DNA of 14,367 bases from a virus (IMGVR_UViG_2654587792_000011), one strand, 5' to 3'; positions 1 to 9,488 are shown, counted from the stretch's first letter. Notes: generated by a model not told the origin, from the sequence alone. Made by a program: numbers and translations.

Positions 1-34
1 CCGCCCTGACAACATCATAGTGTTTAAATGCCAT
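1..34 (-). CDS. Partial CDS (5' end only); gene continues beyond the left edge of the window; product unknown
   Basis: Minus-strand ATG at 32-34 preceded by GGGAGG (complement of 41-46). Only 11 codons (MAFKHYDVVRA) fall inside the window. Not stx-like. Confidence 0.25.
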   Translation of the reverse strand, partial: MAFKHYDVVRA

Positions 35-227
35 GAATCCTCCCGGCCGGGATAATATTGTGAGTAAAATGAGGAGCGGGCTGAAGTCCGGAAGTTACAG
101 GACAATGGCAGAAGAGAGACAACAGCCCGCAATACGAAAAAGGCCGCGCTATTGCGCAGAGTGATTACTGTCGGATATTATTCGCCAGCTGAAATATTAC
201 TTCACGTTTTGTTGTTTATTCCTTGCC

Positions 228-256
228 GCCCGCGTCTCCCTGCGCGGGCTTTTTTT
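228..256 (+). terminator. Intrinsic terminator-like hairpin on the plus strand
   Basis: Stem GCCCGCG (228-234) / CGCGGGC (243-249), 8-nt loop, then seven T (250-256). No plus-strand gene is evident upstream of it. Confidence 0.4.
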
Positions 257-483
257 GTCCATAAGAAAGCCCCTCCGGAGAGGGGCTGGAGAGTGGCGCT
301 ATGTGCCATTGCATGGTGCCGGGTGCCTCCCGGTGAATTCAGTACCAGCACCTGAATCCGCGATTATCCCATATACCTACTCGCTGATTGCCCCTCCGCA
401 CAGGGGGATTCACCATGCCAGTTTCTTTTAACAAACTCCCCGCAAAACAGACAACAGTCAACCGCCTGAATTGTGAGACATTT

Positions 484-509
484 AAAAAAAAGGCCCGCAA
501 AAGCGAGCC
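484..509 (-). terminator. Intrinsic terminator downstream of the tRNA cluster
   Basis: Read on the minus strand: GGCTCGC-TTTT-GCGGGCC hairpin (one G-U pair) followed by eight U (complement of A484-A491). Lies 15 nt past the 3' end of the last tRNA. Confidence 0.5.
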
Positions 510-523
510 AGGGAAAATAAGTG

Positions 524-600
524 TGGCGCGTTGTACTGGATTCGAACCAGTGACCGATTGCTTAGAAGGCAATTGCTCTGTCCGGCTGAGCTAACAACGC
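524..600 (-). tRNA. argO: tRNA-Arg, anticodon UCU (reads AGA)
   Basis: The reverse complement gives a 77-nt cloverleaf: acceptor GCGTTGT/ACAACGC, D-stem GCTC/GAGC, anticodon loop CTTCTAA, T-arm with GGTTCGAAT, 3' CCA. The symbol follows the ileZ-argN-argO convention for phage tRNA trios from memory. Confidence 0.85.
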
Positions 601-613
601 ATGATGCAGATAA

Positions 614-690
614 TGGACCGCCATCGGGGACTTGAACCCCGCGCAGCCAGCTTCGAAGGCTGGCGCTCTTTCCTGATGAGCTAATAGCGG
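614..690 (-). tRNA. argN: tRNA-Arg, anticodon UCG (reads CGA)
   Basis: The reverse complement gives a 77-nt cloverleaf: acceptor CCGCTAT/ATGGCGG (one G-U pair), D-stem GCTC/GAGC, anticodon stem CCAGC/GCTGG with loop CTTCGAA, T-loop GGGGTTCAAGTCCCC, 3' CCA. Symbol by convention only. Confidence 0.75.
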
Positions 691-697
691 TATGTGA

Positions 698-773
698 TGG
701 TGGCCCTTGCTGGATTTGAACCAGCGACCTGGCGATTATGAGTCGCTCGCTCTCACCACTGAGCTAAAGGGCC
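698..773 (-). tRNA. ileZ: tRNA-Ile2-like, anticodon CAT (lysidine type, reads AUA)
   Basis: The reverse complement GGCCCTTTAGCTCAGTGGT...ACTCATAAT...GGTTCAAATCC...GGGCCACCA is a 76-nt cloverleaf closely resembling E. coli ileX-type tRNA. Confidence 0.85.
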
Positions 774-822
774 GGAAGCAGAATAATAATGGTGCGTAAT
801 TAATTCTGCAATCTCATCCGTT

Positions 823-1872
823 TCAAACGATTAAATCCTGAACTTCCCTGACTGTCTGCTCAAAACGTCCGGTCTCCAGCTCAACACCAATCGCACGACG
901 CCCCAGTGCCATCGCCGCTTTTACCGTTGAACCCGACCCCATGAAAAAATCCGCAACCAGATCACCAGGACGACTACTTGCGCTGATTATCTGCTGCAGC
1001 ATTTCTGCCGGTTTTTCGCACGGATGTTTCCCTGGATAGTACTGCACCGGTTTATACGTCCACACATCGGTGTACGGCACCTGCACCGTCACACCGAAAT
1101 ACCGCCGCAAATTTTTATATTCACTCAGCAGTTCCATATACTGCCGGTTCAGCTCACTGTATGTGCTGACCAGCTGGTGGTGTGGCTTTTCCAGTTCCCC
1201 GCGCTGATGTTTCTCTTCTGCCACCCGGGCAAACAACGCCTGCAATTTGTTGTAATCACCCTCGTTCGGTAACTGCCACTGACTGGTACCAAACCAGTGC
1301 GAAGCCATGTTTTTCTTTCCGGTGGCTTCCGCTATCTGTTTTGACGTTATTCCCAGTGATTTACGCGCATCACGAAAGTAAGAAATCAGCGGGGCCATGA
1401 CGTGCTGTTTTAGCTCGCGCCCCTGTGCCACATAGCCATCATCTTTCGGGCGATACGGTCCCTGATAATGTTCTGCAAACAGAATGCGCTCTGTTGCCGG
1501 AAAATACGCCCGCAGACTTTCCTTATTGCACCCGTTCCAGCGTCCGGACGGCTTCGCCCAGATAATGTGGTTCAGCACATTAAAGCGCTCACGCATCATG
1601 ATTTCGGTGTCAGATGCCAGGCGATGACCACAGAACAGGTAAAAACTTCCGGCAGGCTTCAGTACCCGCCAGAACTGCGCCAGACACTGGTCCAGCCATT
1701 TCAGGTAATCATCGTCGCCCTCCCACTGGTTATCCCAGCCCTCGGGCTTCACTTTAAAGTATGGCGGGTCTGTGACTATCAGATCGACAGAGTTTTCCGG
1801 TAAGGTCTGGATAAATTCCAAGCAATCAGCGTTGATTAACTCACAACTGGATATTTTTACAGTATTAACCAT
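823..1872 (-). CDS. DNA methyltransferase (amino-MTase, N6-adenine or N4-cytosine, beta-class)
   Basis: 349-aa ORF. Motif IV DPPY (IVTDPPYF) lies near the N-terminus and the SAM-binding motif I FxGxG (FFMGSGST) near the C-terminus, which is the beta-class order. No restriction-enzyme partner is adjacent. Confidence 0.85.
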   Translation of the reverse strand: MVNTVKISSCELINADCLEFIQTLPENSVDLIVTDPPYFKVKPEGWDNQWEGDDDYLKWLDQCLAQFWRVLKPAGSFYLFCGHRLASDTEIMMRERFNVLNHIIWAKPSGRWNGCNKESLRAYFPATERILFAEHYQGPYRPKDDGYVAQGRELKQHVMAPLISYFRDARKSLGITSKQIAEATGKKNMASHWFGTSQWQLPNEGDYNKLQALFARVAEEKHQRGELEKPHHQLVSTYSELNRQYMELLSEYKNLRRYFGVTVQVPYTDVWTYKPVQYYPGKHPCEKPAEMLQQIISASSRPGDLVADFFMGSGSTVKAAMALGRRAIGVELETGRFEQTVREVQDLIV

Positions 1873-2022
1873 AGATCAATAAGCACTTCTCTGATAGGCT
1901 CATACCGCTTTTGCGCAAAGCAGATGGGCCTGAGGTTTGCTTGTGACCCCAACGCATGAGCAGATGGCTGGCAGGTGCCGCTAACACCCACCAGCCGCCC
2001 ATTACCACAAATTAAAAAACCT

Positions 2023-2220
2023 TCACTGAGGAAGGCGTCTGTAACAACCGAACTGATAATCTGCCAGACCCGCCATAACAAGCTGAGTCAGTATTAACTG
2101 GCAGCGTTCGCGTGAAAGGTAAGTATTCTGCGCAATTTCCCCGACGGTCGCCGGTTCGGTGACGCTTAATTCATTAAACACCACTCTGGCGGTTTCGGTC
2201 ATATCCTGCTGTTTTAGCAT
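2023..2220 (-). CDS. Small hypothetical protein, possibly winged-helix
   Basis: The track ORF is 2023-2343, but its first 41 codons run into the terminator hairpin. An internal ATG at 2218-2220 with an AAGGGA-like SD upstream gives a 65-aa product (MLKQQDMTETARVV...). Confidence 0.35.
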   Translation of the reverse strand: MLKQQDMTETARVVFNELSVTEPATVGEIAQNTYLSRERCQLILTQLVMAGLADYQFGCYRRLPQ

Positions 2221-2343
2221 GCCTTTTTCCCTTTTCCGGTTAACGTGACATACCAATACCTCTTGTCGAAAAAGCCAGCAAGCTGAAAGACCGGCATTCG
2301 CAACCACCAGCGCATTTAACGTCCTGTACCGCTTTTCGGGCAC

Positions 2344-2371
2344 AAAAAAACCCGCATAAAGCGGGTTCTTT
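2344..2371. terminator. Strong intrinsic terminator, tR'-like for the minus strand
   Basis: A-run 2344-2350, stem CCCGC (2351-2355) / GCGGG (2361-2365), loop ATAAA, then TTCTTT. On the minus strand the hairpin is followed by seven U. About 85 nt downstream of the Q-like stop. Confidence 0.6.
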
Positions 2372-2455
2372 CAGGTGTCCATGTCTGCTATTCGCCTCGC
2401 GGTATAGCTTTGCGAAGCGTAGCTGGATTGAAACAGTTTATGCGTAAAAAATCAA
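2372..2455 (-). promoter_or_regulatory. Candidate late promoter and antitermination (pR'/qut-like) region
   Basis: Sits between the Q-like stop and the terminator. On the minus strand there is a TTGATT (-35-like) overlapping the Q stop, then 17 nt, then TTCAAT (-10-like). Assignment is by position and analogy only. Confidence 0.3.
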
Positions 2456-3006
2456 GACATTTTTTGAGCAAACGATTCTCGCATAGGGATGTATAGCGCA
2501 TATTCAGCAACAGCCAACCAATTAGCAATTCGCTTTTCGCATGTACTAAAACACCATTCCGGGTGCACCTCATTCAACAATTCAGCCATTTTGCGTTTAC
2601 TCATCCCCCGCCCTTCGTATCTTTGCCGCAGGATATCAATCAATCCAGGATAACGTGCAAGCGCTTTACTTATCACCCCATCAATGCGTAACGCCTCTGC
2701 ATCAGTACAGTGAGACAACCAGCTCTTCTGTCTGCCAGCGATCATCTCTCGCAAGAATGCTTCCAGCTCTGGTTTATCAATCCCTGACTCCCTGATTCTA
2801 CGCAGGGCTTCATTGATCGCGGTTTTTGTCAGTTTTTTGGATGTCAGCAACTGATTGAACATATTTCCTGGTTTGCCACCACCTATGTACGACCAACGCC
2901 CCCACATCCGTAATTTCCCCTGGATCCAGACGGCTTCCAGCGTTTTTAGACGTAAATGCTCGCCGCTTTTGCCTGTAATTTCCGGGTATATCATATTTAC
3001 GATCAC
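2452..3006 (-). CDS. Putative late-gene antiterminator (Q-like), called by position
   Basis: 184-aa ORF coupled to rusA by a 4-nt overlap and followed by a terminator, which is the usual rusA-Q-pR'-tR' arrangement in lambdoid phages. I cannot verify sequence homology. Confidence 0.45.
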   Translation of the reverse strand: MIVNMIYPEITGKSGEHLRLKTLEAVWIQGKLRMWGRWSYIGGGKPGNMFNQLLTSKKLTKTAINEALRRIRESGIDKPELEAFLREMIAGRQKSWLSHCTDAEALRIDGVISKALARYPGLIDILRQRYEGRGMSKRKMAELLNEVHPEWCFSTCEKRIANWLAVAEYALYIPMRESFAQKMS

Positions 3007-3362
3007 TCACTCTCAATTTTGTAAATCTTCACGCCCAGCCGCCCCCCAGGAACGAGCTGACCGCGCACAATATTAATTTCATCAAACTGCTCGTCGTCTA
3101 TGAGAAGTCCGGCATGCGTCAGCGCATCCAGTGGTGCTTTCAGGATATTGTCCAGGTCACGACGACGCTTATCCGGTGGCTCTGCAATAATCTTTATCGC
3201 CAGCCGTCCGGACAGGTTTAATTTCAGCCGCTGCTCGCGAACAATTAGCGCCACATCCCGGCGATAACGCTCACCGGCTTTTGATACAAAATATGTGTTG
3301 TCACGACGTCGCCAGTAGGTGTTCACCGTTGGCGGGTAAGGCAAAACAAACTCTATACGCAT
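3003..3362 (-). CDS. rusA: Holliday junction resolvase RusA
   Basis: 119 aa. Size and motifs (PPxxN near the N-terminus, RRRDLDN, GxLxDD) match the RusA family. Confidence 0.85.
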   Translation of the reverse strand: MRIEFVLPYPPTVNTYWRRRDNTYFVSKAGERYRRDVALIVREQRLKLNLSGRLAIKIIAEPPDKRRRDLDNILKAPLDALTHAGLLIDDEQFDEINIVRGQLVPGGRLGVKIYKIESE

Positions 3363-3374
3363 CAGTAACCTCTT

Positions 3375-4370
3375 TTACCCAAGCACGCCGGTTGCAAAGG
3401 CGTGATCAAGAAAATGAAAAATTAAATCAACCTGGGAACCATGCTTTTCTTCGAATGCCAGCGGATCCGCATGAAGCTCGTTGTGATGTTCCCGACACAG
3501 CGGTAGTGTGAAAATATCGTGGGATTTTGTTCCCATTCCACCCTGACCGTGGCCTATCAGGTGGTGGGCATCATCAGCAGGCTTTCCGCAACATGCGCAC
3601 GGCTGCGTCTTAACCCAGCGCGTGTACTTTTCATTAACCCAGCGGCGACGTTTTGGGCGTAACATAAAAGACTCCGGCGACTCCGGATCCACTTTCAGCG
3701 CCAGCACCTTTTTCGCCTTATCCTGGATGATGCTGGTGGCAGTAACCGAAGGCACAAGGTCACTTTCCCGGGTAACAGACGGCACAACAGGCTTCGGTAA
3801 TCTCAGTGCCTTACGGGCTGCACTTTCCGATAAGGCATCCGCCAGATCATTACGAATCAGCCACCAGCACAGTTCCGGCATTGTCACAACGTGACTGTCG
3901 TCAAAACCGAGCTCCCGACGCACAACAGACAACACCCAGCGGGCACAGTTATCCGTTGCCATTGATTCCAGCCGTTCCGTGAACTGATCGCGCAGCTGGT
4001 TATCGCAGTGCCAGCACAGACGGATTGCGCCCGGAGCGTGTCGCATTGTGGTCATGTTCTCGCTGTGCCAGTTGGAATGAGGCCACTGACAGCCCTTTTC
4101 ACGAAGTAACCAGCTTTCAAGACATTCCACGCCACCAGCACGACGGATCACTGCCTCATTGCGGAACACGGCCCGAACGGCAGGATCATCCGCCAGCGGT
4201 TGTGATGCCGCCGGAACGGCACCACTGGCAAAAGATGAATAACGTTCCGGCTCAGGCTCCAGCAGGACACGCCCCTGCATAAACAGGGGCATCAGCTCTG
4301 AACCGGGCCTGAACAATACGATCCCCATACGCGGGGCAATTTCAGGGGTCAGTAGTGCTCTCACGGTCAC
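3375..4370 (-). CDS. Conserved phage protein with C-terminal HNH-like Cys/His motif (DUF968-like)
   Basis: 331 aa. C-terminal CACCGKP...HHLIGHG...LCREHHNELH looks like a zinc-binding HNH nuclease-like motif. Sits between the helicase and rusA as in many enterobacterial prophages. Confidence 0.55.
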   Translation of the reverse strand: MTVRALLTPEIAPRMGIVLFRPGSELMPLFMQGRVLLEPEPERYSSFASGAVPAASQPLADDPAVRAVFRNEAVIRRAGGVECLESWLLREKGCQWPHSNWHSENMTTMRHAPGAIRLCWHCDNQLRDQFTERLESMATDNCARWVLSVVRRELGFDDSHVVTMPELCWWLIRNDLADALSESAARKALRLPKPVVPSVTRESDLVPSVTATSIIQDKAKKVLALKVDPESPESFMLRPKRRRWVNEKYTRWVKTQPCACCGKPADDAHHLIGHGQGGMGTKSHDIFTLPLCREHHNELHADPLAFEEKHGSQVDLIFHFLDHAFATGVLG

Positions 4371-9204: not shown

Positions 9205-9367
9205 AGTGACATCCTCATGTGCGAATTTTGAAAACTCACCACATGGGACGCCAATCACAGAGGTGGTGAGACGTACAGGGTTGGCGTAACCGGTCGCACA
9301 TGACCCCGGCGCATCTTTCGATGCCCCTGCACGCCCCACCATAATTTGGATGTGAGGAAACGTGCGC

Positions 9368-9389
9368 AAAAAAACCGCTGAAGCGCGGT
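9368..9389 (-). terminator. Intrinsic terminator inside the early-right operon (tR1-like)
   Basis: On the minus strand: stem ACCGC/GCGGU with 6-nt loop, followed by a U-run (complement of A368-A373 on plus). Confidence 0.45.
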
Positions 9390-9488
9390 TATGCGCATGT
9401 GCGAATTTCAGGACGCCAATCCCGGCACCCGCTTTATAAGGTGCGGAGACAGTGTAACGTCCCGAAATTGCAGAATCAATATTTGGTC

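Follow-up and report, generated by a model that had tools for sequence, protein, structure and literature searches.

What occupies the place of the Shiga toxin genes in a lambdoid prophage that has the neighbourhood of a toxin locus but no toxin? The question is raised by a 14,367-nucleotide viral sequence (IMGVR_UViG_2654587792_000011; hereafter the window, whose numbering is used throughout), in which a trio of tRNA genes of the kind found upstream of stxAB is followed by a hairpin-dense stretch at positions 35-523. An earlier note, made from the sequence alone, had suggested that this might be a cargo-free version of a cargo locus. We followed it up by alignment, ORF calling, a terminator scan, folding and Rfam covariance models.

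Phage genes in the window read from high to low coordinates, on the minus strand, and ORF calling placed all nearby large ORFs on that strand, among them a Q-like ORF (3006..2452) and a DNA methyltransferase (1872..823). The tRNA trio (524-773, minus) was identified by ARAGORN, by Rfam tRNA matches and by the RefSeq annotation of a near-identical locus (L001). ARAGORN resolves it into an ileZ-like tRNA with anticodon CAT (698-773), an argN-like tRNA with anticodon TCG (614-690) and an argO-like tRNA with anticodon TCT (524-600), all on the minus strand; it assigns the anticodon-CAT gene to Met, and RefSeq calls it tRNA-Ile (ileZ). At the opposite end lies the start of a nanS-p-like esterase gene (1..44, minus), recognised from the sequence, with a GGAGG ribosome-binding site at 44..40 and an ATG at 34..32, and from homologues in four loci (L001, L002, L003 and L004). 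The gene extends past the window edge and is of the SASA/DUF1737 or SASA/DUF6645 type, judging by homologues in near-identical genomes. The trio and the roughly 490 bp of non-coding spacer that the earlier note described are both present, with the orientation corrected: ‘downstream’ of the tRNAs runs from 523 down to 35 on the minus strand. Its view that the spacer holds no credible ORF was upheld, the longest ORF being 77 aa and six ORFs giving no Pfam match at E ≤ 0.1, and the terminator scan, folding and Rfam alignment located all five of the hairpins it had listed.

Alignment with Stx phages showed where the toxin genes would lie. The stx2AB cassette sits exactly between the argO terminator and TCACAATTCAG, at window position ~477 (alignments A1 and A2), which bears out the idea of a cargo-free stx locus. 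Window 484-523 aligns to the argO-stx2A interval, and the part from position 1 to about 477 aligns to the spacer that follows stx2B (A1, A2), leaving an empty site of about 9 nt (TTAAATGTC, 477..485, minus). In Stx2 phages this 485..477 site is occupied by a Pstx2-stx2A-stx2B cassette of ~1.3 kb, the whole of which is absent from the window, and the argO terminator is kept upstream of stx2A (A1). The order in the Stx2a phage Stx2a95 (L002) is methylase, tRNA trio, stx2A, stx2B, a 510-bp spacer and esterase; Sakai prophage Sp5 (L003) has the same order from the trio onward, with Q before the trio and no methylase annotated between them. The comparison of empty with filled sites places the stx2AB insertion between the argO terminator and the candidate promoter of the sRNA described below, and defines the slot within about 9 nt.

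The suggestion that the spacer is a deletion scar did not survive this comparison. The spacer is intact downstream of stx2B, in Sp5 and Stx2a phages, and downstream of stx1B, and because it persists beside both toxin genes it is not a remnant of the toxin slot. About 1000 of 5426 complete E. coli genomes carry it as their usual tRNA-to-esterase interval. In Sp5 a match to the Rfam RNA family STnc100 (EcOnc27/sRNA103, 207.7 bits) abuts AsxR (88.1 bits) on the opposite strand; Stx2a95 carries STnc100 together with the window's plus-strand variant beside the toxin genes; and the order in a Stx1 phage is stx1B, STnc100 (176.7 bits), the window's plus-strand variant and esterase. A short direct repeat brackets the stx2 cassette of Stx2a95, with TATATCTG followed by CGCC on the left and TGTAATCTG followed by TGTCAC on the right (L002 about 2660-2675 and 3990-4000); its right copy provides the downstream sRNA with a -10-like hexamer, TGTAAT. 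Such a repeat would fit insertion as well as microhomology-mediated loss.

The contents of the spacer were identified by comparison with E. coli O157:H7 Sakai. Window 1-530 differs by one mismatch, at window 447, from the argO1-ECs1088 spacer of prophage Sp4 (alignment A3), where the order is ileZ1-argN1-argO1, a 489-bp spacer and ECs1088. Crosslinking and northern blots have located Hfq-bound RNAs in Sp4 (Tree et al. 2014, Mol Cell; PMC4104026). Table S2 of that study gives EcOnc05 (Sakai 1179806-1179914, plus, ~222 nt on northern blots), EcOnc08 (1179938-1180010, minus) and EcOnc21 (1180016-1180101, minus, ~271 nt, with a probe common to EcOnc08 and EcOnc42). From A3, the window position is 1180192 minus the Sakai coordinate; the published coordinates were taken from an earlier Sakai record and in Sp5 differ from NC_002695.2 by about 137 nt, and the zero offset used for Sp4 is validated only through the probes and the coincidence of a T-run. 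Converted in this way, the EcOnc05 Hfq peak falls at 386..278 on the minus strand, within the STnc100 match of the window, and the EcOnc08 peak at 182-254 on the plus strand, its 3′ end in the T-run 250-256. The EcOnc21 peak falls at 91..176 on the plus strand, an Hfq-binding region in a longer plus-strand transcript antisense to the esterase leader. The northern probes match with zero mismatches: that for EcOnc05 is window 355-389 of the plus strand and detects minus-strand RNA, and that for EcOnc08/21/42 is window 148-182 of the minus strand and detects plus-strand RNA.

These assignments bear on the plus-strand terminator, which had been said to have no obvious gene to terminate: it ends EcOnc08, an RNA already published (Tree et al. 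2014, PMC4104026, Table S2). That the terminator implies a plus-strand transcript holds for the Sakai Sp4 copy, where EcOnc08 is published and its peak maps to 182-254(+) of the window; expression and Hfq binding of the EcOnc05-type and EcOnc08-type RNAs in the present phage would follow by carry-over from that copy. Convergent sRNAs are found at the moron site of Sp3, 4, 5, 9, 10, 11, 15 and 17 (PMC4104026), and a review terms such pairs dyads of unknown purpose (PMC7873438). The plus-strand segment of the window is 99.1% identical to VT1-Sakai, a Stx1 phage said in PMC7547250 to carry EcOnc42 3′ of stx1AB, with which the gene order of the Stx1 phage given above agrees.

On the minus strand, Rfam STnc100 (RF02076) matches window 447..257 at 139.2 bits, against a gathering score of 47 (E 6e-32), and the match spans the full covariance model (positions 1-206 of 206). 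The hairpins at 391-406, 319-333 and 268-287 are the internal stems and the terminator of this one known RNA, of STnc100/EcOnc05 type. They comprise the 5′ stem-loop CCCCCUGUGCGGAGGGG (391..406, minus), seen in the Rfam consensus structure and in the minimum-free-energy fold; the internal stem-loop CCGGGAGGCACCCGG (319..333, minus), seen in the Rfam alignment and part of an invariant core; and the terminator (259..287, minus), an 8-bp stem at 287..268 followed by UUUCUUAUG, found by the scan and forming the last helix of the Rfam model. The hairpin at 264-291(-) folds at -17.3 kcal/mol (z -3.4), with 0/200 shuffles as stable. From the Rfam match, the identity with Sp4 and the probe match we place an EcOnc05-type Hfq-binding sRNA (STnc100/EcOnc27/PasD family) at 257..476 on the minus strand. 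STnc100 lies in the late region, flanked by Q, the tRNA trio and esterase/holin genes, and does so equally in Sp5, Sp4, Stx2a95 and the Stx1 phage.

The start of this sRNA can be approached through conservation. A set of 120 IMG/VR loci was retrieved using the invariant STnc100 core as the search pattern, and the core is accordingly identical across all of them. The motif TTAAAT-N5-CACAATTCAG is conserved behind unrelated upstream sequences, of which there are 58 distinct variants, and TTAAAT (485..480) is a candidate -10 element, with no clear -35; in Sp5 its place is taken by TGTAAT, where the stx2 cassette ends. With a predicted 5′ end at about 472-476, the RNA would measure about 215 nt up to its terminator, near the ~222 nt seen on northern blots. 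The EcOnc05-type sRNA has its own terminator and probably its own promoter. TTGACT (461..456) was considered as a minus-strand -35 and rejected: no acceptable -10 follows it, and the hexamer falls within the stretch that is conserved although the sequences upstream of it are unrelated. Northern sizes of ~222 nt, and of 235/247 nt for EcOnc27, count against it as well, since they place the 5′ end further upstream. Tandem pairs of STnc100-type copies occur in some IMG/VR phage contigs (L013, L020, L027, L040 and L083, with cores 484 bp apart), and in L068 the cores are 275 bp apart, the second copy having its own TCACAATTCAG...TTGACG leader. Overexpression of the relative sRNA103/EcOnc27 raised fimZ and espA transcripts.

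The plus-strand element converges on this sRNA. Its terminator has a stem at 228-249 and T7 at 250-256 (terminator scan), and the hairpin at 224-256(+) folds at -16.7 kcal/mol (z -3.6), none of 200 shuffles being as stable. We aligned 21 distinct variants of the window's plus-strand type, four of which (L050, L052, L067 and L072) are divergent with unrelated flanks. TTGCGC is kept in the alignment (TTGCAA in one variant), followed by a spacer of exactly 18 nt but variable sequence and by an invariant TATTAT; after this come a variable 16-19 nt, the invariant CUUCACGU, then UUCCUUGCC, the terminator and a U-run. In L050 and L052 compensatory changes preserve the terminator stem; this was checked by folding each variant singly, since in alignment A4 indels put the 3′ terminator arm of these two out of register. 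The conservation in the alignment points to a putative plus-strand promoter at 152..181, with -35 TTGCGC at 152-157, the 18-nt spacer and -10 TATTAT at 176-181. The arrangement TTGCGC, 18 nt, TAAAAT lies in Sp5 upstream of the mapped 5′ end of AsxR (read from A2). Against the promoter, TTGCGC matches the -35 consensus at only 3/6 positions. A sigma-70 scan of the window called neither of the two sRNA promoters.

From this promoter a plus-strand sRNA of ~70 nt is predicted, starting near 187-189 and agreeing with the EcOnc08 crosslinking peak at 182-254. The published peak and the fold together place the EcOnc08-type Hfq-binding sRNA, convergent with EcOnc05, at 187..256 on the plus strand. Its 5′ part is unstructured and U-rich, with a conserved CUUCACGUUUU. 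Since the published northern band is ~271 nt and its probe (148-182) covers the promoter, upstream of the predicted start, the ~70-nt form remains a prediction. No Rfam family matches the plus-strand element. AsxR and AgvB were considered and rejected, with no match to either model (RF02703 and RF02702), whose conserved ~42-nt 3′ region was part of the comparison, at E ≤ 10 in window 100-300; in the positive control, Sp5, AsxR scored 88.1 bits and AgvB 40.9 bits. We tentatively propose, at somewhat less than even confidence, that the element, rather than a by-product of a long antisense transcript, is a self-contained Hfq sRNA of ~70 nt that has a conserved promoter and a conserved seed-like motif, CUUCACGUUUU, and forms a third, uncurated allele class of the AsxR/AgvB slot. 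The host target of the EcOnc08-type RNA could be another core sRNA. An 11-mer, UUACUUCACGU, is common to window 197-207(+) and Spot 42 in the same sense (MG1655 spf, L127 240-250), and the plus-strand sRNA also has GCUGAAAUAUU, resembling GCUGAAUAUU of Spot 42. We set this similarity aside as evidence, about 0.15 such matches being expected by chance over known sRNAs, and regard it as a non-significant lead for seed mimicry only.

The remaining hairpins belong to the flanks of the dyad. The terminator scan found 12 terminator-like sites in window 1-3200, against 3.3 ± 1.9 in shuffles, and five of these lie inside 35-523. The argO intrinsic terminator (484..509, minus) has its stem at 509..492 and T8 at 491..484, and the hairpin at 484-512(-) folds at -13.8 kcal/mol (z -4.2; 0/200 shuffles as stable). 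In the esterase leader, a terminator-like hairpin CTGCGCAATAGCGCGG followed by CCTTTTTCG (135..159, minus, stem 159..144) reaches -9.1 kcal/mol (z -2.1) and is kept in Sp4, Sp5 and Stx2a95. Read on the opposite strand, this hairpin holds the -35 of the plus-strand promoter.

The 490-bp interval is, very probably, the standard non-coding sRNA dyad module of lambdoid E. coli prophages, here without a Shiga toxin insert. This reading is based on sequence identity with the Sakai locus, the covariance-model match and the exact probe matches. The module lies between the Q, late-promoter and tRNA region and the esterase-lysis genes, and its order on the minus strand is the terminator of the tRNA cluster followed by a ~215-nt STnc100-family sRNA, the ortholog of EcOnc05. 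EcOnc08, which probably starts at its own conserved promoter and measures ~70 nt, meets the STnc100-type sRNA tail to tail from the opposite strand, their 3′ ends one base apart, and longer plus-strand transcripts (the EcOnc21 region) are antisense to the esterase leader. We suppose that lysogens express both RNAs, which would work with Hfq on host RNAs in trans, like AsxR/AgvB, that the back-to-back terminators would stop the two sRNA genes from reading into each other, and that Q-modified polymerase would read through all the terminators during lytic growth.

Other explanations of the same hairpins lead away from two trans-acting RNAs. One assigns them a role in cis: the minus-strand terminators at 509-484, 287-259 and 159-135 would, in the lysogen, shield the esterase and lysis genes from the promoters of tRNAs and morons, only Q-modified polymerase would override them, and the short RNAs would be by-products. 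Three terminator-like sites do stand in series on the late-gene strand, between Q and the tRNAs and the late genes, and StxS is a precedent in these phages for a terminated late-promoter by-product (PMC7547250). However, such an array leaves the plus-strand promoter, the plus-strand terminator and Hfq binding on both strands unexplained, and STnc100 has a structured body of ~190 nt, found conserved in many contexts, which far exceeds what a terminator needs. We consider it quite unlikely as the whole account, and it is compatible with the sRNA dyad rather than exclusive of it. It is also improbable, if less so, that the plus-strand RNA is mainly a cis-antisense RNA, a ~271-nt form arising near or inside the esterase start that represses the esterase leader and ribosome-binding site, with no short trans-acting sRNA. 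The ~271-nt band detected with probe 148-182 and the EcOnc21 peak at 91-176, antisense to the esterase 5′ UTR, favour this, and a promoter-like site at 28-56 (plus) overlaps the esterase start; yet a start at that site would yield 194 nt, not 271. Moreover, in L050, L052, L067 and L072 the sequence upstream of TTGCGC is unrelated, yet the promoter, CUUCACGU and the terminator are kept, and this retention behind unrelated flanks indicates that the conserved unit is the short one. Both the terminator array and the cis-antisense role may add to the functions of the dyad.

The remaining two readings deny the region a regulatory RNA altogether. That it encodes one or more small proteins is suggested by ORFs of 43-77 aa, by phage records that annotate hypothetical proteins there and by a partial ‘hypothetical protein’ pseudogene in RefSeq on the plus strand at window 303-428 (L001 3403-3528). 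Against this, the six ORFs lack a Pfam match, the annotated ORF runs opposite the structured STnc100 core and conservation follows the pattern of RNA stems, all of which makes a coding function very improbable; the RefSeq pseudo-CDS at 303-428(+) is probably a mis-annotation over the STnc100-type sRNA. An inert scar left by deletion of stxAB or other cargo, its hairpins incidental, would account for stx2AB being missing at exactly this point and for the 5-bp repeat ATCTG that flanks the cassette in Stx2 phages, but the spacer is complete beside stx2B and stx1B, recurs almost unchanged in about 1000 genomes, fits a curated RNA family and corresponds to published Hfq-bound RNAs. We hold this reading to be extremely improbable.

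The sRNA dyad is widespread and recombines with its surroundings. The contiguous tRNA plus spacer is found at ≥ 80% query coverage in 1006 of 5426 complete E. coli genomes, and the plus-strand segment in 991 of the 5426 (about 18%). The convergent partner of STnc100 is of the window's type in 34 of the 120 IMG/VR loci and AsxR-like in 13, and these partners are combined with varied upstream neighbours, including argO, stx2B and others. EcOnc08-type elements occur next to stx1 and many stx2a genes, and other phages carry other cargo in the Q-to-lysis interval, such as an IraM-like anti-adapter. The gene upstream of the tRNA trio varies, being a DNA methyltransferase in the window (823-1872(-)) and in Stx2a95 and an AraC-family regulator in Sp4 (L004 1304-1891). 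As this gene differs between otherwise identical spacers, mosaic exchange has taken place to either side of the block of tRNA and sRNA genes.

The dyad, the binding of its RNAs to Hfq and its place at the moron site are already known, having been published in 2014, reviewed since and extended in 2020-2026; the predicted window-type plus-strand promoter and ~70-nt sRNA are the refinement offered here. The EcOnc08-type segment is without annotation in the RefSeq genomes listed. There is also a gap in family annotation, the EcOnc08-type RNA having no Rfam family though 991 of 5426 complete genomes carry the segment, and related copies of the EcOnc05-type and EcOnc08-type RNAs adjoin both toxin operons.

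Elsewhere in the window, a C4 antisense RNA (75.1 bits) and an isrK Hfq-binding RNA (62.3 bits), both above the Rfam gathering score, adjoin at 9259-9346(-) and 9368-9444(-); the pair resembles a P1/P7-style antirepressor-control region, here within a lambdoid prophage. A weak isrK-like match (21.6 bits, E 0.11) lies at 2345-2418(-), between the Q-like ORF (3006..2452) and the next ORF, and the gap that holds it is the expected place of a StxS-type late-promoter/terminator short RNA.

Among known systems, the EcOnc05/EcOnc08/EcOnc21 locus of Sp4 in E. coli O157:H7 Sakai has the same sequence and the same flanks, argO upstream and esterase downstream; it differs in host strain and in the upstream gene, which is an AraC-family gene in Sp4 and a DNA methyltransferase in the window. 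The stx moron locus of Stx1 and Stx2 phages (933W/Sp5, Sp15) shares the order Q-(methylase)-ileZ/argN/argO-[slot]-sRNA dyad-esterase-holin. In contrast to that locus, the window has neither stxAB nor the stx promoter, and the argO terminator directly abuts the sRNA module. [quoted passage not shown] The Sp5 copy of STnc100 differs in the central variable region (about window 345-390), scoring 208 bits against 139 for the window. A 2026 preprint links PasD to STnc100 and puts PasD2 beside the esterase gene (doi 10.64898/2026.05.13.724894), and the kinship of the window's sRNA with PasD is drawn from this link rather than from a comparison with PasD sequences.

The plus-strand element finds its closest counterpart in the prophage anti-sRNAs AsxR and AgvB, sponges whose 5′ region pairs with the seed of a core sRNA; they have the same slot, orientation and promoter layout and the same short, U-tailed, Hfq-type architecture. 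Like the EcOnc08-type element, they converge on an STnc100-type sRNA with 3′ ends about 1 nt apart, whereas their body and terminator sequences differ from it and their length is 51-60 nt, as against the predicted ~70 nt. With its start site and length estimated from conserved sequence features, the EcOnc08-type element is a positional analog of AsxR/AgvB.
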